The notes beneath the pieces are model-generated. The model was not told the origin of the DNA and made no database searches. It saw only the letters and a list, made by a program, of their open reading frames with translations. DNA of 42,886 bases from a virus, in the IMG/VR virus record IMGVR_UViG_3300045988_122335, positions 1-42,886 of that record; one strand, 5' to 3'. The translations under genes and the position numbers were made by a program. The first letter of the stretch is position 1, and the number at the start of each line of letters is the position of its first letter. Of this stretch, positions 3,810 to 42,886 are shown piece after piece.

Positions 3810-3931
3810 AAAATCAGTCCTTTCATAAATAAAGCGGTAAAGTATATTGCACCTCTACCGCTCTTTAACATTATCAGCTATTTAAAGCTGAACATCTCGC
3901 AAGGTGCGAAAAGTAGTTTATCCGTATTTAA

Positions 3932-4582: not shown

Positions 4583-4854
4583 GACTATAATCCCATTTTG
4601 TTATCGTAAAGGCTTTTTATCCTCTACTTCTTATGCTTTCTATTTGCATAAGTTCAGCATAGCTTTTCAACCATTTTCCAATAGGTATATTTGTCAAATG
4701 GTTGTTGCGGTCTCGTGGGAGAATTATATCTTTTCATCTCCTATGCGTTGCCCCTGACTATACTTTGTATAGCCTTCGGTTCGGATTAGCATTTCAGCTT
4801 TCCCGTTTAATACCGCAATTTTCGATACAAGTCACCTTGTAAAGTGGCAGATTT

Positions 4855-5228: not shown

Positions 5229-5747
5229 TTATTCCTCCGATTTTTTACTGTTTTTTGTCGGTGCGGGAACAGGTTTAGCCGATAAATCATTGATTTTATC
5301 TTTTAATGTGCTAAATTCGCTCAAAATGTTATCAAATTTGCCGTTTAGAGCGTTTATTCCGTCAAGGGTGGGTTGATTGTTGCCTTTGCTGTTAAAACCC
5401 TCTGTAGGCTGTTTCTCGGCATTTTCGTTACATTCGATATATTCAAGTTTTCTCATAGAGGGAACGCCCTGACCGTTGACAGACTTAATGTATATCTTAG
5501 GTAAGTTTTTATCCCATAGTGTGACCGTGTTATTCGGTGCGACTGGGTATGACGTAGCCTCGTTCTCATTCAGCACCCATATAAAATCATTTGTAATGCT
5601 TTTTTCGGGTGTAGGTGCGGTCGGCATAGGCTGTGCCATAGGTGGCTGATAATACATATTCTGATTATCAACAGGTGCTTGAATGGGCGGCTGCATAGGA
5701 TTAAAATAACCCATTCTGTAAAAAGGTGCGTAATTTCCGTAAGCCAT
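5229..5747 (-). CDS. Hypothetical protein with Pro/Gln-rich N-terminus
   Basis: 172-aa ORF in operon context. Confidence 0.55.
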   Translation of the reverse strand: MAYGNYAPFYRMGYFNPMQPPIQAPVDNQNMYYQPPMAQPMPTAPTPEKSITNDFIWVLNENEATSYPVAPNNTVTLWDKNLPKIYIKSVNGQGVPSMRKLEYIECNENAEKQPTEGFNSKGNNQPTLDGINALNGKFDNILSEFSTLKDKINDLSAKPVPAPTKNSKKSEE

Positions 5748-23668: not shown

Positions 23669-25999
23669 TTAATTTGCTCGTCTGCGATTAAGAATTGTGA
23701 TGGAATTTTGCCGCTTTTTGAAAGATAAATATTTTTGAGCGTACATTGCTATCACATCGGCACTATCATCATAGGCATTGTGCGCCGTATATGAAAACGA
23801 GGTGAGGTACTTCATAAACTTGCCAAACTCAGAGCCTTGCGCATACATTCCAAATTCGGGGAACACAATGCACGATTTAATAGTCGCCTCATTATCGTAT
23901 ATTTTATCTTCTTTATGCTTATAGCTATATACTTCTGTAATATTACAATAATCTATACCTCTTTCGTAAAGCATACCACGCAATAGTGTGGCAAGGCTTG
24001 TATCGGTATTCCGCTCTATGTGCAATCGGGTAATGTGGTGCTGCTCTATTTTACGAATTATAGTAGGATATATCTTTTCCATAGGTTTCATTTCAAATAT
24101 ACAGTCTTTAAGATAATGTTTATCGCCTATAGGAAGACAAATAGCCATTGCTATATAGTTTGCGCCAGTACGCGCAGGGTCAAGCATAGCCCAACAGCTT
24201 TCCTCGTCTTTTTCTTCCTCAATATGTGGTATAGCCTTATATGTTAATAGATTATCATAGCTAAAAGCACAACCCTCAATAGGCATAGGCTCTTGCATAT
24301 CCATAGCCATAAAAGTATTATAGTCAGCAAGTCTATCTGCACGAGCTTTCTCGGTTGTGTACTTATGCGGATATGTGCTTTCGTCAGTGTCCCAGTCAAG
24401 TTTAGGCACAGAAACAAAAACAGATTTATATTTCGCATTGAATTTTGTGTATTTGTTGATTTTACTCTGTTTAGCCGTATCACCGCCATATTTGCGCTTT
24501 ATCGTAGACAAAAAGTCATAAATATGGTAGGTAGTGCCACTGAAAACCTCAAAACTGTTATTATCGTCATATTTTCGCTTTTCCCATTGGGCTTGATACT
24601 GCTCTATATCTTTTTCGTGCATATTGATATTGCCCTTATCTTTTGACCGTGTAATATCATCGTAAAAGCGGTATTTATATCGTCCACCGTCCACAGGGGT
24701 ATCTTTATTTGCTAATAGGAACGATGTACCTTTAATACTGCCGTGAATAAGCAAGCGTGCCACCTGATTATTGCCACCCTCACGTCGAACATCAAATATT
24801 TTGTCCTTGTCACCCTCAAATTGAGCATAATAAGGGAATACTTTGGCATAATTGGGCTTGCACATATATTTTACCAATTTTGCGGACATATCGGTTATCA
24901 ATGAGGGGTTTCCGACTATTTTTAATACATCTGCATTTATATCTACACCAAATATATAAGCTATCAAAACGGTATCGGCATAGCTATTATGTGATACTAT
25001 GCCATTTGCAATAAAATTGTGCGTTTCTTCGACTTCAATATCAACCATATCAGTTAAATCTTCGTCAAATTCTATGCTTTTTATTTTTTGCCATACAAAG
25101 TTATTTGAAAGAACCTCTTTAATCAATCCCGTTTTTTCTAAAAATTCATTAACTTCATCGCCATAATTAAACGGCGGACAAATTTCAAAAAGGCAATCAC
25201 TCAAAGCTATATCTTTACACATTTTATAACCTTTATCGGTATACAATCTATGTTCGGGGCTACAAACTATCGCTTTGCCGTCATTAAGTTCAATTCTAAC
25301 TTGTTTTTTCTCTGTTTTCCATTTGTTTGTTATTTGTCTTACGACAGCCTTATTTTCTTTCATAGAATACACAAAATCGCCAATATTAACATCTTTGATA
25401 GGTTTATACCCCTGAATGGTTAAAATAGGCGTATCAGCTTTTAGGCATTTCCCAAACCCCGTAGGGCATTGCTTTTCAAGGTATTTCACAGTGCCGTCAA
25501 GCACCATTTTATCGGCATAATACCAAAATCCCTTAAAACAATTAAGGTTATATTTCCATACCTTATCATTTTCAGGCATACCCCACTCCATATAAAGTGC
25601 AAAGTGTTCTATGTTGCGGAAAGCCGACAAAGCGTAGAAATTCTCATACAATTTGCCGTATTCGGTATAATTCTCTTGTAATTTCAGCAGCCGAGCCTTG
25701 TTTTCCTCGGTGAATTTCTCTTTTTTGAGTTTATCAGCCAAAACAGCCATTTTTTTCAGTTTATCACGCAATGTAGGCAAAACAAATTTGCAGACATACT
25801 CAATGTGCTTGCGGATTTCGTCATCGCCCTCGTTATCACGCAACTGCGCCAAATAACCGTGTATCTGCGAGTGCATAGTGCGATATAAATTATCGCTGAC
25901 AGCTAAAACATACTCATCACTGTCTAAATACTTTGCATTTTTGCGCATTTCGCTAAACGTAACGCAGCTTTCACGAACAATCTCACCGATATTATCCAT
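23669..25999 (-). CDS. terL: Terminase large subunit, interrupted by a mini-intein in the Walker A motif
   Basis: 776-aa ORF. The extein junction restores PTGFGK|SYADTVL (Walker A GxGKS). The C-terminal nuclease-type region is present. RBS is GGAGGTG. Confidence 0.85.
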   Translation of the reverse strand: MDNIGEIVRESCVTFSEMRKNAKYLDSDEYVLAVSDNLYRTMHSQIHGYLAQLRDNEGDDEIRKHIEYVCKFVLPTLRDKLKKMAVLADKLKKEKFTEENKARLLKLQENYTEYGKLYENFYALSAFRNIEHFALYMEWGMPENDKVWKYNLNCFKGFWYYADKMVLDGTVKYLEKQCPTGFGKCLKADTPILTIQGYKPIKDVNIGDFVYSMKENKAVVRQITNKWKTEKKQVRIELNDGKAIVCSPEHRLYTDKGYKMCKDIALSDCLFEICPPFNYGDEVNEFLEKTGLIKEVLSNNFVWQKIKSIEFDEDLTDMVDIEVEETHNFIANGIVSHNSYADTVLIAYIFGVDINADVLKIVGNPSLITDMSAKLVKYMCKPNYAKVFPYYAQFEGDKDKIFDVRREGGNNQVARLLIHGSIKGTSFLLANKDTPVDGGRYKYRFYDDITRSKDKGNINMHEKDIEQYQAQWEKRKYDDNNSFEVFSGTTYHIYDFLSTIKRKYGGDTAKQSKINKYTKFNAKYKSVFVSVPKLDWDTDESTYPHKYTTEKARADRLADYNTFMAMDMQEPMPIEGCAFSYDNLLTYKAIPHIEEEKDEESCWAMLDPARTGANYIAMAICLPIGDKHYLKDCIFEMKPMEKIYPTIIRKIEQHHITRLHIERNTDTSLATLLRGMLYERGIDYCNITEVYSYKHKEDKIYDNEATIKSCIVFPEFGMYAQGSEFGKFMKYLTSFSYTAHNAYDDSADVIAMYAQKYLSFKKRQNSITILNRRRAN
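24986..25447 (-). mobile_element. Mini-intein (154 aa, no homing-endonuclease domain) in the terL P-loop
   Basis: Starts with CLKADTPILT (block A, Cys1 = residue 185). Block B is GKAIVCSPEHRLYT and block F is DMVDIEVEETHNFIANG. It ends IVSHN (residue 338), followed by +1 Ser. Confidence 0.85.
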
Positions 26000-27075: not shown

Positions 27076-27140
27076 AGAGCATTTTAGGGGGTTTATATAA
27101 TACTGTGGTATACTCTGCATATTATGAATAAATAGGCATA
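27076..27140. repeat. Left inverted-repeat block flanking the plus-strand cassette
   Basis: AGAGCATTTTAG (27076-27087) and TAAATAGGCATA (27129-27140) are exact reverse complements of 29327-29338 and 29305-29316. Their order is mirror-symmetric. Confidence 0.7.
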
Positions 27141-27173
27141 TTAAAACATTTATTTTAATATTAAAAATTTTAC

Positions 27174-27202
27174 TTGACAAATATATAATATAGTGATATA
27201 AT
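27174..27202 (+). promoter_or_regulatory. Perfect consensus promoter of the plus-strand cassette
   Basis: TTGACA(27174-27179)-17 nt-TATAAT(27197-27202), with an AATATTAAAAATTTT tract just upstream. Confidence 0.7.
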
Positions 27203-27235
27203 AAAGACAACGAAAGGAAAGGAGAAAAAAACAAG

Positions 27236-27352
27236 ATGAAAACGGAAGATATTAAAAATCTATTGCATTTGATTATTGAACTTCTGAAACGTTGTAAAAC
27301 GGTTGAGGAAGCTATAAAAGCAATTTGCAACGCTTACGACATCCACGAATAA
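27236..27352 (+). CDS. 38-aa helical micro-protein, first ORF of the plus-strand cassette (not in the ORF track)
   Basis: RBS is GGAAAGGAGA. Translation is MKTEDIKNLLHLIIELLKRCKTVEEAIKAICNAYDIHE*. GC-rich hairpins GCCGGG-8 nt-CCCGGC and AGCC-TTTCG-GGCT follow. Confidence 0.5.
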   Translation: MKTEDIKNLLHLIIELLKRCKTVEEAIKAICNAYDIHE

Positions 27353-27427
27353 CAAACGCCGAGCCGGGCGGCATAACCCGGCAGCCTTTCGGGCTTGTTG
27401 ATAAAATAATTAAAAGAGGTTTTAAAA

Positions 27428-27664
27428 ATGGAAAGATGCACACAGAAACAATTGAAAAATCTTGTGAACACTGGCGCGGCTGTTGATATTACCCGCGGAA
27501 ACAACGAAACCCGCGAACAAATAATCAATGAAGAAGAATATTATACCCAAATAGGATATAGCGCGGGCGTTTATGGTTGTAATGGTGTGTTGTTAAAAGG
27601 TCATAAAACGGGCAAATTATACGCAGTTACGAGCAGAACAAACGCAATATATATTTTTAATTAG
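27428..27664 (+). CDS. Hypothetical protein (78 aa)
   Basis: RBS is AAGAGG. The conserved-looking core IGYSAGVYGCNGVLL...TGKLYAVTSR reminds me of small proteins on Firmicutes mobile elements, but I have not verified this. Confidence 0.6.
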   Translation: MERCTQKQLKNLVNTGAAVDITRGNNETREQIINEEEYYTQIGYSAGVYGCNGVLLKGHKTGKLYAVTSRTNAIYIFN

Positions 27665-27761
27665 CAGAGTGGCGGCGGCTTTGGCTGCCGTTAATGCGGC
27701 AGGGCATACGGTCACAAGCCCCGAAAGCCTGAAAGCATAATTTTATATTGAGGTGTAAAAA

Positions 27762-28148
27762 ATGAAAACAAACAACAAAAAAGCACGCGAGAACATACGC
27801 AAATACATTATTGCAAACTTTACCCCGGAGGGCTACACGGACAACCCCCCGCAGGAGTTCCCCGAAATAGCCCGCTTTATTTTATCCACTTTCAGAAAAG
27901 AAAAATATAACACCCCGGAAGACTTCCGATATTATCGGAAAAATGAACTTGCAGCTTTTGCGGATTGGTGCGCGGGGCTTTGCGGTGTTCTTGATACTTG
28001 TTATTTTTATAACCGTTCCGCCGTTGGTGACCTCGGCGCAATTCTTAAAGAAACAGAAGAAGAAAAAGCGCGCTATACAGAAGAACAAGCCGAAAATACA
28101 TTAACTTTTTTAATTTATCGCGAGTTAATAAAAGGGGCTACAGAATAA
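27762..28148 (+). CDS. Hypothetical protein (128 aa)
   Basis: RBS is GAGGTG. Its stop overlaps the start of the ATPase gene (TAATG). Confidence 0.6.
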   Translation: MKTNNKKARENIRKYIIANFTPEGYTDNPPQEFPEIARFILSTFRKEKYNTPEDFRYYRKNELAAFADWCAGLCGVLDTCYFYNRSAVGDLGAILKETEEEKARYTEEQAENTLTFLIYRELIKGATE

Positions 28149-29140
28149 TGTATAACGGTGAACAATTGGCGCAGGCGCTGACCGTTTTCGGTCTGCCCTG
28201 CGTTTTTAAAGAAATGAAACAAACCCCACGAAATACAATATATTATTTTGATTTTACGGACTGGACCAAAGTCACAGCGGGCAGGCGTAAAGCAGCGCTC
28301 GACCGTATTTCTTTATATGCTAAGCGTCAATTTAATTATATTGACAGTAATATATCACATTTTGCAATATATCACGCTGAAGACAATTATAATATTGTTC
28401 CGCTTTTCGGGCTTGCCTTGCCTGATGATAATAACTATAAATTCATAGCAGGCATAAACGAGGACGGCGAACAAGTCAATATTTCATTAGACGAAACGAC
28501 ACATGCACTAATCGCAGGCACTACCGGCAGCGGTAAAAGCGTATTTTTGAAAAGCCTTTTATATTCTTTGTTGACTACAAATAACCCCGATAAAGTAAAA
28601 TGTGCTATTATAGATAAAAAGCGCAGTTTGAACTATTGGAGCAGGGCGGCGCATTGTTTTAAAGTCGTTAATGATGATATTTCGGCAATAGCTTTATTAA
28701 ATATTTTTCAAAAGGAAATGTATAACCGATATGAAGAATTACAGCGCCGAGGGCTTGAAAAAAATATCAGGTTGTTTCCTAAATTGGTATTGATAATTGA
28801 CGAGCTGGCGGATTTAATGCTGACCGACCGCAAAGCAGAAATTGAAAACAAGCTTGTTTCGCTTTGTCAGCTCGGGCGCGCTGCTGGTATTCATTGCGTA
28901 CTTTGCACCCAGTCGCCCCGCGTTGCCGTTGTCAGTGGTTTAATTCAAGCGAACACCCCGACAAAGATTATATTTAAAACAGCCAACACGCGGGAAAGCG
29001 TGTTGTGTTTGGGTCATTCGGGAGCGGAAAAGCTGCTTGGGAATGGTGACTGCCTTATAAAATTACCCGATAAAGTAAAAGATATTAGAGTGCAAACACC
29101 GTTTGCAAGTGATGAAGACTTTAGAAACTGCATAGAATAG
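28148..29140 (+). CDS. FtsK/SpoIIIE-family DNA translocase ATPase, motor domain only (no TM segments, no gamma domain)
   Basis: Walker A is LIAGTTGSGKSVFL and Walker B is LVLIIDELADLM. Also present are LGRAAGIHCVLCTQSP, IQANTPTKIIFKT and GAEKLLGNGDCL. The N-terminus resembles the FtsK alpha subdomain. Confidence 0.85.
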   Translation: MYNGEQLAQALTVFGLPCVFKEMKQTPRNTIYYFDFTDWTKVTAGRRKAALDRISLYAKRQFNYIDSNISHFAIYHAEDNYNIVPLFGLALPDDNNYKFIAGINEDGEQVNISLDETTHALIAGTTGSGKSVFLKSLLYSLLTTNNPDKVKCAIIDKKRSLNYWSRAAHCFKVVNDDISAIALLNIFQKEMYNRYEELQRRGLEKNIRLFPKLVLIIDELADLMLTDRKAEIENKLVSLCQLGRAAGIHCVLCTQSPRVAVVSGLIQANTPTKIIFKTANTRESVLCLGHSGAEKLLGNGDCLIKLPDKVKDIRVQTPFASDEDFRNCIE

Positions 29141-29150
29141 AGGTATAGAA

Positions 29151-29267
29151 ATGATTTTTAGCGTTTTAGCTTATATTTTAGTAGTCGGTATTGATTGTAT
29201 ATTCTTCGAGTGTACGAAAGCAGGGCAGAAGATAGCCAATAAAATCTACAAGAAAATAATAAAATAA
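29151..29267 (+). CDS. 38-aa small hydrophobic protein, last ORF of the cassette (not in the ORF track)
   Basis: Translation is MIFSVLAYILVVGIDCIFFECTKAGQKIANKIYKKIIK*. The start lies 10 nt after the ATPase stop, with AGAGGT upstream. Confidence 0.4.
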   Translation: MIFSVLAYILVVGIDCIFFECTKAGQKIANKIYKKIIK

Positions 29268-29275
29268 TGCTTTTG

Positions 29276-29306
29276 ACCGTCCGCAGCTTGTGGGCGGTTC
29301 TTTTTA
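29276..29306 (+). terminator. Rho-independent terminator of the plus-strand cassette
   Basis: CCGUCCGCA-GCU-UGUGGGCGG (9 bp including 2 G.U pairs), followed by UUCUUUUUAU. Confidence 0.6.
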
Positions 29307-29338
29307 TGCCTATTTAAAACTATGCTCTAAAATGCTCT
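29305..29338. repeat. Right inverted-repeat block flanking the plus-strand cassette
   Basis: TATGCCTATTTA (29305-29316) and CTAAAATGCTCT (29327-29338). A local direct repeat ATGCTCT-AAA-ATGCTCT is also present. Confidence 0.7.
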
Positions 29339-29480: not shown

Positions 29481-29951
29481 TTATTGTTCCGATGTGGCTT
29501 GTAGTTCGGCTTGCAACCTCTCAAATACTGCTTGCCGGCTGATGTGGTGTCTTCTTGCTATTTCCGATATATCGCCCCATATCGCTTTGCCCTCTCTACG
29601 CATAAGAGCGGCTTTTTTTATTTCCTCGCATAGTTCCGCTTTTGGCGGTCGTGTTTTAATATTACAATAAGCATTTAAAGTATATCTCACATTATACCGG
29701 GATATATTTAATTTATGGGCTATCATATCCACATTATGCAGTCCACTTTCCCACAAGGCTTTTATTTGCTCCTTGTTGGCTGTGCCGTCGTCGCTTACCA
29801 CTCTGCCTCGCCTTATTGTTCCGCCGTTTGCCTTTATTGTATTGACAACATAATATCGCGATAGCCCTACAATATCAGCAGTTCTTGTCACTGTATAGCC
29901 CTTATAATGGCATATCATAATATCGTCTATTTGGCTTTGTTTTAGTTTCAT
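29481..29951 (-). CDS. DNA-binding protein with three HTH-like repeats
   Basis: 156 aa. Three segments resemble HTH motifs: TRTADIVGLSRYYV, VDMIAHKLNISRYNV and SEIARRHHISRQAV. Confidence 0.6.
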   Translation of the reverse strand: MKLKQSQIDDIMICHYKGYTVTRTADIVGLSRYYVVNTIKANGGTIRRGRVVSDDGTANKEQIKALWESGLHNVDMIAHKLNISRYNVRYTLNAYCNIKTRPPKAELCEEIKKAALMRREGKAIWGDISEIARRHHISRQAVFERLQAELQATSEQ

Positions 29952-30190
29952 TCAGTTATTGCTCCTGTTGGGTCTTCAAGCCAGTAAACGCCTATAACCG
30001 TATTGCGCCCATAACGGGTTTTAACCGCTTTATCACGGCGATTTATTATATAGCCCTTGTTGCGTAAATGGTATATAATTCCGCTTAGCCTTGTTGCGCC
30101 GTAAAGTTCTATTGCCTGCATTGAAGTTAATTCTCTGCCTGATAATAAATGCTCTAATATGGCTTTTGTTTGCGTGTTGTCGTGTACCAT
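29948..30190 (-). CDS. Winged-helix DNA-binding protein (HTH_39-like)
   Basis: 80 aa. The pattern ILEHLLSGRELTSMQAIELYGATRLSGIIYHLRNKGYIINRR...RYGR...YWL is typical of this family. Confidence 0.6.
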   Translation of the reverse strand: MVHDNTQTKAILEHLLSGRELTSMQAIELYGATRLSGIIYHLRNKGYIINRRDKAVKTRYGRNTVIGVYWLEDPTGAITE

Positions 30191-30789
30191 TATTCTGCCC
30201 CCTTTAATATTCTGCTTACCGTAGCTATGCTTATATTTAATATATTGGCTATGTCTCTGTAACTCTTGTGTTCAGCTTTCAAATTAACCACTTGTTGCCG
30301 AATTTCGTCTGATATTGTTTTCGGTCTGCCGAGTGTAACACCCTGTTGTTTTTTTCTTTGCAACGCGTTGGATGTATTATAGCCTATTTGTCTTTTCAAA
30401 AATTCGTCTTGTATAAAGAATTGAGATATAGTCATCCAAGTATACGGGTTCATTTTTTCCCCGCCCTCTAATGTTATGCCATTGCTCAAAAACTTTACAG
30501 TTGCTTTTTTCTGTTGTGTTATTAAATCAAGCATTTCAAAGCAATCAATATAATTTCTGCCAAAGCGTGATGTTTCGGTAAGGCAAACAATGTCTGTTGG
30601 TTCGAGGCATTCAAGCATTTTGTTAAACTGCTCACGCTGATTACCTTTAACGCCGCCGCTGATATGTTCCTCAAAAATCATATCAAACTCATATCCGCTA
30701 TTTTCAAGCAAATACATCTGTCGCTCATAATCTTGTTTCGCTGATTTTTCGGTTGTAGATACTCTACAATAAGCTATTACTTTGCACAT
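30190..30789 (-). CDS. Small serine recombinase, resolvase/invertase family
   Basis: 199 aa. N-terminal catalytic domain with IAYCRVSTTEKS (active-site Ser), a GG...QREQF segment and ETSRFGRN. C-terminal HTH is SYRDIANILNISIATVSRIL. Confidence 0.85.
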   Translation of the reverse strand: MCKVIAYCRVSTTEKSAKQDYERQMYLLENSGYEFDMIFEEHISGGVKGNQREQFNKMLECLEPTDIVCLTETSRFGRNYIDCFEMLDLITQQKKATVKFLSNGITLEGGEKMNPYTWMTISQFFIQDEFLKRQIGYNTSNALQRKKQQGVTLGRPKTISDEIRQQVVNLKAEHKSYRDIANILNISIATVSRILKGAE

Positions 30790-30855
30790 TCTTATTTCCC
30801 TTTCTTACGGTATAAATAAAAGCCTATAATATATTACTTTTCTAACCGCAATTAT

Positions 30856-30884
30856 ATTATAAGCCTTTATGTAACATTTGTCAA
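30856..30884 (-). promoter_or_regulatory. Perfect consensus promoter of the recombinase operon
   Basis: The minus strand reads TTGACA-aatgttacataaaggct(17)-TATAAT. Confidence 0.7.
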
Positions 30885-30900
30885 GCAAAATATTTAATCT

Positions 30901-31071
30901 TTAAATGATTATTTCCAATAAAAAATAGGCAAAGGCAAAATCAACCATTGCTTGTGATAGAAAAAATGCCGTAATATAAGCGGGCGCTTTAGTCTTAAAG
31001 CCCATTACAGATAATGCCAAGCCCATAATGCCTATTGTTATGCCAAATATAGCTAATATTGTTTTAAGCAT
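30901..31071 (-). CDS. 56-aa two-TM membrane protein (not in the ORF track)
   Basis: The ATG lies 1 nt after the stop of the upstream gene. Translation is MLKTILAIFGITIGIMGLALSVMGFKTKAPAYITAFFLSQAMVDFAFAYFLLEIII*. Confidence 0.45.
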   Translation of the reverse strand: MLKTILAIFGITIGIMGLALSVMGFKTKAPAYITAFFLSQAMVDFAFAYFLLEIII

Positions 31072-31072
31072 T

Positions 31073-31705
31073 TCATTCCCCTTTCTTGTCTAACAGAGCT
31101 TTCATATTTGCTAATTCTTTTAGTTCATATCGGAATTGCCCCTCGTTCAATGCGTCACTTGCCTTATCGAGTATACTTTCCGCGTCGCCTATTTGTACCA
31201 ATTCGTGACCGTAGCCGCCCTTGCTCTTTAACCGTAGCTTGCTTGTTGACTCTTTCTGTTGACCTTGTTCGGCTGCTGAAAGAGTAAAGTTTATTAAATC
31301 GGCTTCAATATCACCGCATACTTGCTTGACATCATCAGCCGCATTGTTGCGCAAATGCTCAAACGCCGATACACTTATTCTTGCAAACGCCAAAAATTCA
31401 AGTTTATTCGGCGTATATGATATAGCCATATTTATATATGTCATAAGTGATAAATAGGCATTATAGATATTATAAATATCATCTGCCGACAGTTTAAGGG
31501 CAATATCATTTGTGACCGTGCGTTCCTGCCGGAGAATTTCGCCAAGTTTTACTCTCACACGGTATTCAAGAGTATCAGCTAAATACTTTTCGCCTTGCCT
31601 TGATTTATTCATAATATCCGAACGGCATATCTTGATAAATTCTTCAAGCTGCGACTTTATTGTTTCAACTTTAGCTTGATATTTTGTTAATACTTCATTA
31701 TCCAT
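31073..31705 (-). CDS. Candidate terminase small subunit (gp3-like)
   Basis: 210 aa. The pattern YTPNKLEFLAFARISVSAFEHLR...ADLINFTLSAAEQG...LRLKSKGGYGHE resembles the HTH plus oligomerisation core of P22-gp3-type TerS. It sits directly after a late-regulator-like HTH gene. Confidence 0.4.
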   Translation of the reverse strand: MDNEVLTKYQAKVETIKSQLEEFIKICRSDIMNKSRQGEKYLADTLEYRVRVKLGEILRQERTVTNDIALKLSADDIYNIYNAYLSLMTYINMAISYTPNKLEFLAFARISVSAFEHLRNNAADDVKQVCGDIEADLINFTLSAAEQGQQKESTSKLRLKSKGGYGHELVQIGDAESILDKASDALNEGQFRYELKELANMKALLDKKGE

Positions 31706-42767: not shown

Positions 42768-42886
42768 ACTTTTTTTAATGGCATTTTGTTTAACTTATAT
42801 CTTTCCCAAATAGTACCCTCAATATAGTATTTTCTAATTGTTTAATAATATCCCCGCCGTAGGCATTTCGGGTTATGTCGATAAAT
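42768..42886. repeat. Terminal direct repeat, copy B (identical to 1..119)
   Basis: See copy A. It includes a duplicate of the 3' end of the 23..682 gene. Confidence 0.9.

Follow-up and report, generated by a model that had tools for sequence, protein, structure and literature searches.

The window analyzed here is a viral DNA sequence of 42,886 nucleotides (IMG/VR record IMGVR_UViG_3300045988_122335, positions 1 to 42,886), and our subject is a plus-strand gene cassette at positions 27,076 to 29,338. It contains five open reading frames (ORFs) of 38, 78, 128, 330 and 38 amino acids, referred to below as p38a, p78, p128, the FtsK-like ATPase and p38b, and it converges on a minus-strand operon that encodes a serine recombinase. 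Inverted 12-bp matches, which we call A and B, lie on either side of the cassette, and an original prediction, made from the sequence, had proposed that they bracket an invertible or excisable element. L-numbers are labels for related loci and contigs that were compared with the window; L001 to L005 are its close relatives, i.e., five phages from one metagenome with 92–97% DNA identity to the window. The features of the locus are as follows.

27076–27087, no strand assigned: A-left, the 12-mer AGAGCATTTTAG; exact, mutated in L001, L002, L003 and L005, with the block containing it deleted in L004
27129–27140, no strand assigned: B-left, the 12-mer TAAATAGGCATA; exact, holding the 9-mer AATAGGCAT and lying about 40 nt upstream of the -35 element
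27174–27202, plus strand: sigma-70 consensus promoter with an extended -10 element (TGATATAAT); a 12/12 match to TTGACA-17-TATAAT, with the TG extension
27236–27352, plus strand: p38a, a predicted helical micro-protein of 38 amino acids; ORF with an AGGAGA ribosome-binding site
27358–27383, plus strand: H-type RNA pseudoknot of 26 nt, GCCG-A-GCCGGG-CGGC-AUAA-CCCGGC-A; covariation in both stems
27428–27664, plus strand: p78, a small protein with an alpha/beta fold, from a family found in gut phages; 137 homologues, AlphaFold predicted local distance difference test score (pLDDT) 90.8
27663–27724, plus strand: twister-P5 ribozyme, predicted to be self-cleaving; Rfam RF02684, 51.8 bits against a gathering score of 37.6, E = 6e-9
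27762–28148, plus strand: p128, all-helical, from a gut-phage family that is highly conserved; 676 homologues, PHROG 11100, stop codon overlapping the FtsK start
28148–29140, plus strand: FtsK/SpoIIIE-like alpha+beta motor ATPase of 330 amino acids; Pfam, PHROG and PDB matches
29151–29267, plus strand: p38b, a single-pass membrane peptide of 38 amino acids with a basic C-terminus; Kyte-Doolittle 18-residue maximum 2.49
29275–29306, plus strand: intrinsic terminator of the cassette; 11-bp stem (29275–29299) with six GC pairs, then a T run
29305–29316, no strand assigned: B-right, the 12-mer TATGCCTATTTA; exact reverse complement of B-left, holding AATAGGCAT and overlapping the T run of the terminator
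29327–29338, no strand assigned: A-right, the 12-mer CTAAAATGCTCT; exact reverse complement of A-left, with substitutions in relatives that are independent of those in A-left
29481–30789, minus strand: operon encoding a 199-amino-acid serine recombinase, an 80-amino-acid winged helix-turn-helix (HTH) protein and a 156-amino-acid multi-HTH protein; converges on the cassette, Pfam and PHROG matches

The promoter was unchanged in all five close relatives, and a similar one (TTGACAAAT...TAGTGTATAAT) was found in a distant relative, L009. The fold of the terminator had a z value of -2.6, and in relatives the structure was kept, with changes in the loop only. Both signals had been recognized in the original prediction, whose view of the cassette as modular and accessory, with transcription signals of its own, is supported. 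It had also described five translationally coupled ORFs. All five are present, and because the p128 and FtsK-like genes overlap by a single base (ATAATG), with p38b close behind after a gap of 10 nt, translational coupling of p128 and the ATPase is suggested; the other junctions, however, are spacers of 75 nt (p38a–p78) and 97 nt (p78–p128), both of them structured. The cassette as a whole proved not to be more GC-rich than its surroundings, its G+C content of 0.40 comparing with 0.38 for the genome and ranking at the 82nd percentile among windows of the same size. The two RNA spacers are the clear exception (0.47 and 0.51), and what had been taken for GC-rich hairpins there turned out to be structured RNAs, i.e., the pseudoknot and the twister-P5 element. 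Elevated G+C content therefore gives no evidence of foreign origin. The parts of this modular unit nevertheless have separate histories.

The ends of the window are identical (1–119 = 42768–42886), which indicates a circular assembly and a complete genome of about 42,767 bp. On the minus strand, PHROG and Pfam matches identified genes for RecT, an exonuclease, SSB, a replication initiator and a DNA methyltransferase, as well as an intein-bearing large terminase, portal, major head protein, tape measure and endolysin. Judged from this gene content and the circular assembly, the window is the complete genome of a siphophage of the gut. Every plus-strand ORF of at least 80 amino acids outside 27.2–29.3 kb overlaps a minus-strand gene, so that the cassette is the sole credible plus-strand unit, in agreement with the earlier description of it as the only multi-gene unit on that strand. 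It is located in a variable slot between the end of the early operon, formed by the recombinase and HTH genes, and the packaging genes.

The 330-amino-acid protein matched the Pfam family FtsK_SpoIIIE (PF01580) at 3.6e-30, with 105.5 bits against a cut-off of 24, PHROG 1358 at 1.2e-56, and PDB entry 2iuu at 5e-33, in an alignment ending at residue 329; against the NCBIfam FtsK equivalog it scored 119 bits, compared with a cut-off of 1566. Its 330 residues are fully used by an alpha-like N-terminal domain and the beta domain, with no gamma domain and no membrane domain. It contains Walker A (GTTGSGKS) and Walker B (IIDELADL) motifs, and GTTGSGKS and DELADL were invariant in an alignment of the family. 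The arginine of the TQRP motif is the arginine finger of FtsK. In the family alignment, the TQRP of distant members reads TQSPR or TQTPR in the clade containing the window, with the arginine two residues later. The complete FtsK motor originally described is thus borne out as regards the alpha-like domain, the Walker motifs and the lack of an anchor and of a gamma domain; in place of the canonical TQRP arginine, the window protein reads TQSPR.

Homologues of the ATPase are numerous (6067, many on contigs of about 40 kb), and 366 GenBank phage records contain one, although the window copy is at most 41% identical to any of these; at the DNA level, the cassette with its surroundings (5.8 kb) matched GenBank phage DNA over no more than 50 nt, by chance. 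PHROG 1358 and 3551 are families of short phage FtsK-like genes, both filed under "moron, auxiliary metabolic gene and host takeover". What these phage proteins do has been described as unstudied (PMC3335513, PMC4113786); for the FtsK/SpoIIIE homologues of Bacillus phages, one proposal concerns DNA translocation or host sporulation (PMC4113786) and another lysogeny (PMC3335513), and the FtsK/SpoIIIE ATPase of phage Fah is listed as a delayed-class gene (PMC4113786). Our literature search for experimentally tested functions of phage FtsK-like proteins found speculation only. The statement that no system of this composition had been described needs correction, because short FtsK-like genes are already recognized as phage accessory genes and the small partners are not fixed to the ATPase. 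One homologue was observed in a bacterial assembly: in L006 (5042–7005), from a Clostridia metagenome-assembled genome (MAG; GCA_017938445.1), a 67%-identical FtsK-like gene directly follows a gene for a 302-amino-acid RES-domain protein, with uncharacterized minus-strand genes on one side and host genes of the corrinoid methyltransferase type on the other.

A survey of neighborhoods in viral contigs and loci, of the kind that the original prediction had proposed, showed that the slot of the ATPase recurs, whereas its three small partners are not fixed. In L002, p78 and p128 are replaced by an unrelated gene of 145 codons, which brings the twister directly before the FtsK-like gene, while L004 lacks p78 and the twister. 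Among relatives whose ATPases are 40–67% identical to that of the window, the FtsK-like gene is the only one shared with it. In L008 (67%) and L009 (45%), a minus-strand terminase gene is followed by a plus-strand cassette that converges on HTH and resolvase genes, and the small genes differ from those of the window apart from p38b-type peptides. In L150, which encodes a recombinase 75% identical to that of the window, a distant FtsK-like gene lies about 4 kb past the recombinase and converges on the early operon; in L010 (40%), the ATPase gene and those after it point in one direction. In many surveyed viral contigs, an FtsK-like gene of 330–390 codons ends a plus-strand run of small genes, and in at least seven of them it faces a gp3-type small-terminase-like gene. 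No homologue of p38a, p78, p128 or p38b, and no nearby resolvase homologue, was found in those contigs. Slot and ATPase are kept across divergent phages, beyond what would be expected of a recent insert.

The p78/p128 pair has a distribution of its own. At 74 surveyed gut-phage loci containing p128, a p78 homologue directly followed p128 in about 40, and an FtsK-like gene, in a 250-amino-acid form, was present in eight. These counts, together with the absence of the pair from the FtsK-gene contigs, led us to reject a dedicated partnership of p128 and p78 with the ATPase; since each mostly occurs without the other, the pair and the ATPase are independent modules that chance to be joined here. 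The best 120 of the 676 p128 homologues were 72–95% identical. The structure predictions that had been proposed for the 78- and 128-amino-acid proteins yielded models of good or fair confidence, but PDB fold searches gave no match with E < 0.1 for p78 and no significant match for p128 (pLDDT 79). Searches of the four small proteins with Pfam, NCBIfam and PADLOC produced nothing significant, and the sole PHROG match was that of p128 to PHROG 11100 (function unknown). p38a is limited to the closest relatives, where 24 of 35 substitutions fall in the third codon position. Peptides that can be aligned to p38b adjoin the FtsK-like gene in L008, where the peptide follows it, and in L009, where it precedes it. 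We rejected the idea that short FtsK-like genes generally have a membrane peptide as partner, because alignable peptides occurred only in the window group, L008 and L009; other hydrophobic small ORFs near FtsK-like genes, considered as counterparts of p38b, look incidental.

The ribozyme in the p78–p128 spacer starts within the stop codon of p78, and its conserved core aligns with that of the family (GCAGAG, UAAUGC, GCA, CGGUC-CAAGC-CCG). It is present in L001, L002, L003 and L005, and in L004 it was lost along with p78. In L219, a type II hammerhead closely precedes p128 and a twister closely follows p78 (3814–3879 and 4628–4689), the P5 hairpin of this twister having a sequence unlike that of the window; pistol ribozymes were found near p128/p78 homologues in L217 (4370–4436) and L222 (1189–1260). 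Because hammerhead II, twister or pistol elements flank homologues elsewhere, the p128/p78 pair looks "ribozyme-associated". Ribozymes of the hammerhead, pistol and twister classes are known to cluster near phage-like genes (PMC8782182, PMC6765202, PMC11061315); their function is reported as unknown, although processing of polycistronic RNA has been suggested (PMC8782182, PMC6765202).

The p38a–p78 spacer contains the sequence GCCGAGCCGGGCGGC-AUAA-CCCGGCA. The exact pattern was found on 53 viral contigs, and in all there were more than 80 distinct copies of the motif on more than 80 viral or phage contigs (L012–L064, L329–L456). The copies are intergenic and usually stand directly before AGAAAGG, i.e., a Shine-Dalgarno (SD) sequence, and a start codon; an SD-like sequence and ATG followed within 25 nt in 34 of 52 distinct copies, and the downstream genes are diverse. 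In the lineage of the window, the start codon is 44 nt downstream of the motif. When the flanks were fixed and the 6+6 stem was left free, 39 of 112 distinct matches were fully complementary, in nine versions of the stem, and the rest had 0–4 pairs. When the 6+6 stem was fixed instead, 31 of 44 distinct copies showed pairing of the 5' tetranucleotide with the first four bases of the loop, and four versions of this pairing occurred (GCCG/CGGC, ACCG/CGGU, CCCG/CGGG and GCCC/GGGC). This pattern of pairing in both stems indicates an H-type pseudoknot. The leader in L009 carries the element with a longer loop (5349–5378), and a near-threshold twister lies near two copies of the motif in L037. No match was found in Rfam 15, with the window searched at E up to 10 and 12 other loci at E up to 1, and a literal search of the literature for the sequence produced nothing relevant. 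This unannotated motif, the most novel element that we found, may represent a new RNA class, and could be grouped with the RAGATH-type RNAs, the majority of which lack a known function (PMC11061315). A hairpin at 27377–27393 on the plus strand (CCCGG...CGGG) reuses the 3' strand of the main stem of the pseudoknot, and could be a competing alternative fold upstream of p78.

Our preferred reading, to which we assign a probability of roughly 60%, is that the cassette is an autonomous, mosaic accessory operon whose motor serves phage DNA handling before packaging, and not a device for inversion. By its sequence signals, the operon is driven by host RNA polymerase, with transcription starting at the promoter at 27174 and stopping at the terminator at 29275. 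Its mosaic has three parts, i.e., p38a with the conserved leader pseudoknot; the p78/p128 pair with the twister, the pair being widespread in gut phages, usually without an FtsK gene; and the soluble FtsK alpha/beta motor with the 38-amino-acid membrane peptide. As expected from its family membership, the twister would cleave the transcript between p78 and p128, to leave a p38a–p78 RNA and a p128–FtsK–p38b RNA with a structured 5' end bearing a 5'-OH. By homology, the ATPase would form a hexameric ring that pumps double-stranded DNA. Because the gamma domain is missing, it would neither read FtsK-orienting polar sequences (KOPS) or SpoIIIE recognition sequences (SRS) nor activate Xer, and because membrane segments are missing, it would be soluble, or else tethered via p38b. 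Our best guess is that it handles phage DNA late in the early phase before packaging, for example by clearing or moving replicated DNA, since the gene usually ends early operons, next to packaging genes.

Several points weigh against the reading of the cassette as a DNA-handling operon unconnected with inversion. The role of the ATPase is deduced from homology and gene position, and its activity is not guaranteed, because the TQRP arginine is shifted. A strong sigma-70 promoter opposite to all lytic genes would also fit expression from a prophage. When the two intergenic regions were subjected to dinucleotide shuffles, two or more inverted 12-mers arose with a probability of only about 0.001, although this was a post hoc test. 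Finally, a serine recombinase adjoins p128 or FtsK cassettes in several backbones (the window, L008, L009, L153 and L154), in varying orientation, and this recurrence leaves room for a functional link between recombinase and cassette.

We also considered, as a more speculative and improbable elaboration, that the operon is a ribozyme-processed unit for a split, membrane-tethered pump, in which the 38-amino-acid peptide would bring the motor to the membrane and the motor, together with p128/p78, would move or exclude DNA, with the pseudoknot as an undescribed RNA class controlling the downstream gene. If that were true, superinfection exclusion or capture of phage genomes in forespores would be example uses of the split pump, and the leader pseudoknot would be an undescribed, ribozyme-associated phage RNA controlling processing, stability or translation.

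Two other roles for the ATPase operon are live rivals. The stronger, although still unlikely, is exclusion or defence of the moron type, in which an FtsK-like pump encoded by the resident genome, perhaps held at the membrane by p38b, would block or expel foreign DNA. It would suit a unit with its own consensus promoter and terminator opposite to all lytic genes, as well as the filing of the FtsK-like families by PHROG and the position of the 67%-identical homologue in the Clostridia MAG, beside a RES-domain gene and with host-type metabolic genes on the far side. PADLOC also reported matches to SspH (C-terminus, 1.4e-41) and mad8 (5e-25), but these were to their FtsK-like parts only, and none of the nine other neighboring proteins matched another Ssp or MADS component. 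Moreover, the gene simply closes the early operon in most of the phages surveyed, and neither an integrase nor a repressor was recognized among the remaining genes of the window, which leaves lysogeny itself in doubt.

A role in plasmid-type maintenance of a prophage is somewhat less probable. Here the serine recombinase would resolve multimers and the pump would segregate the genome at division or into forespores, an arrangement consistent with a complete genome that has a resolvase-family recombinase and no recognizable integrase, with the similar consensus promoters of the two convergent units, and with the translocation, sporulation and lysogeny roles proposed for the homologues of Bacillus phages. 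However, no partition or replication-control genes were identified, a pump without a gamma domain has no known means of choosing direction, and the linkage of resolvase and ATPase is found in the nearest clades only. The host may be Clostridia-like, to judge from one MAG (GCA_017938445.1), and a genome scan for prophage relatives and host gave almost only distant FtsK-type matches, with 31–41% identity, and no close prophage.

Inversion, the idea from which this analysis started, fared worse. The convergent operon has its own consensus promoter (30884–30856) and terminator (29476–29441). Its 199-amino-acid product matched Pfam Resolvase at 3.2e-21 over residues 4–151, with YCRVST at residues 7–12 and an HTH at residues 154–197 (HTH_39 and HTH_7 were among the matches in the operon). 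With a catalytic domain bearing the RVST serine and a C-terminal HTH, it is by sequence a small serine recombinase of the resolvase/invertase family. It matched a PHROG "DNA invertase" at 2e-40, and scored 65 bits against the Mpi invertase model, whose cut-off is 272. The operon lies 143 nt from the right repeats, as the original prediction, which gave about 140 bp, had noticed.

That this recombinase flips the 2.2-kb unit via the flanking 12-bp matches, in the manner of Gin or Hin, is nevertheless very improbable. All four 12-mers are exact and form the two mirror-ordered inverted pairs first described, an arrangement that the shuffles seldom reproduced, and serine recombinase genes lie beside related cassettes, in differing orientations, in L153 and L154. 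The judgment that such matches were very unlikely to arise by chance is tempered both by the post hoc nature of the test and by L009, in which the intergenic regions flanking the cassette also share several 12-mers, scattered and non-collinear; intergenic DNA of these phages thus readily shares short words. The A pair is not conserved: in L004, a 53-nt block including A-left is lost while the cassette is retained, and in the close relatives the two A arms carry independent substitutions. Conservation of the B arms carries little weight, because they lie in near-invariant DNA next to the promoter and the terminator.

The B pair belongs to a larger family. The 9-mer AATAGGCAT that it contains occurs six times exactly in the genome (at 2000, 24278, 27131, 29306, 31028 and 31453) against 0.77 expected, and none of 100 shuffles reached six. 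Four of the six copies are within 27.1–31.5 kb, around the cassette and the recombinase promoter, and a near-copy with one mismatch is at 30924. The near-copy and the exact copy at 31028 are both upstream of the recombinase promoter, and both are kept in relatives that are only about 85% identical there. The original prediction had listed both sites as weaker copies. At the corresponding flanks of L008, L009, L150 and L151, all of which have recombinase homologues, AATAGGCA sites were not found.

A crossover site of the Gin/Hin type, such as hix or gix, consists of two dyad-symmetric half-sites around a central core, and two such sites are present in inverted orientation. Here there are only two separate, differently spaced 12-mers, the distance between the A and B blocks being 41 nt on the left side and 10 nt on the right, and reading of the sequence revealed no dyad partner beside either 12-mer. 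The orientation of the cassette was identical in L001–L005, L008 and L009, i.e., in five close and two distant relatives. The search for the inverted orientation that had been suggested as a check was made in metagenome contigs, and neither of the two predicted inverted junctions was matched; this is a weak negative, as assemblies collapse minor variants and the power of the scan was not calibrated. Inversion would in any case switch nothing obvious, because the promoter, lying between the B arms, would be carried along with the genes. The 12-bp matches are, on their sequence and conservation, not recombination sites, and the model of an invertible or excisable, repeat-bracketed element can be set aside, which makes the main value of this re-examination a negative one.

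Instead, the B pair probably marks candidate binding sites of a regulator shared with the recombinase promoter region. The promoter regions of the cassette (27144–27203) and of the recombinase operon (30855–30914) are 75% alike over 60 nt when compared as reverse complements. An imperfect 21-nt palindrome (30813–30833/30853–30873) overlaps the -10 element and 5' untranslated region of the recombinase promoter. The mirror-like promoters and the palindrome suggest common control or autoregulation.

Finally, a role in conjugative DNA transfer of the TraB/TcpA type is the least credible of the rivals, in that the matches behind it (TrwB_AAD_bind, plasmid TraB at 23 bits against a cut-off of 800, and the TcpA structures 6o1w–6o1z at 5.5e-13) were weak and far below family cut-offs, the best plasmid homologues were at most 34% identical and annotated as FtsK, and the ATPase is without membrane domains and encoded by a complete tailed phage that has packaging machinery of its own.

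Some neighboring features were also noted. The large terminase gene (23669–25999, minus strand) contains an intein (Pfam Intein_splicing, 3.6e-16, residues 210–338), and the insert is polymorphic in close relatives, 24989–25463 being absent from L001 and about 700 extra nt being present at 25147 in L003 and L004. Upstream of the recombinase, a 210-amino-acid protein (31073–31705, minus strand) gave a weak AimR-like Pfam match (E = 0.012, below the cut-off), and a hydrophobic 56-amino-acid ORF (30901–31071, minus strand) follows its gene. Homologues of the 210-amino-acid protein adjoin the recombinase in L009, L150 and L151.

Few phage accessory genes without a tested function are as widespread as those for FtsK-like motors, and the compact, complete genome described here, in which the motor comes with a promoter of its own, a possible membrane partner and a defined transcript architecture, would be a convenient test system. 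The twister in a mapped operon offers a concrete case in which to ask what the self-cleaving ribozymes of bacteria and phages do, and the covarying pseudoknot, which directly precedes start codons on many phage contigs and has no Rfam match, is worth biochemical study.

Compared with known systems, the ATPase is closest to the FtsK/SpoIIIE-like proteins of tailed phages (gamma-like phages of the Bacillus cereus group, cluster J mycobacteriophages and Staphylococcus phages), with which it shares a short motor, an accessory position and membership of PHROG 1358. It differs from them in its TQSPR motif and in its setting, a separate and convergent operon that has a promoter of its own, encodes a micro membrane peptide and is punctuated by a ribozyme among its upstream genes. 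With cellular FtsK and SpoIIIE (PDB 2iuu, 2ius) it has in common the RecA-type beta domain, the Walker A and B motifs and the alpha-like N-terminal domain, but the N-terminal membrane domain, the linker and the gamma domain that reads KOPS or SRS and activates XerD are lacking, the whole protein being 330 amino acids.

The cassette resembles phage morons in having its own promoter and terminator, in being opposed to the neighboring genes and in its variable content among relatives, whereas its G+C content is not distinct and its slot and ATPase are conserved across divergent phages. Like the Gin, Hin and Cin segments, it is flanked by inverted matches and adjoins a small serine recombinase with a C-terminal HTH; in contrast to them, its 12-mers are separate, without a dyad and unconserved, with no orientation variants and no apparent switchable promoter or gene fusion. 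The RNA elements recall the twister and RAGATH-type RNAs found near phage genes, in that the twister of the window scores above the gathering threshold and ribozymes flank p128/p78 elsewhere, but here the ribozyme lies within an operon that is defined, in a phage genome that is complete, starts within a stop codon and is accompanied by a pseudoknot without an Rfam match.

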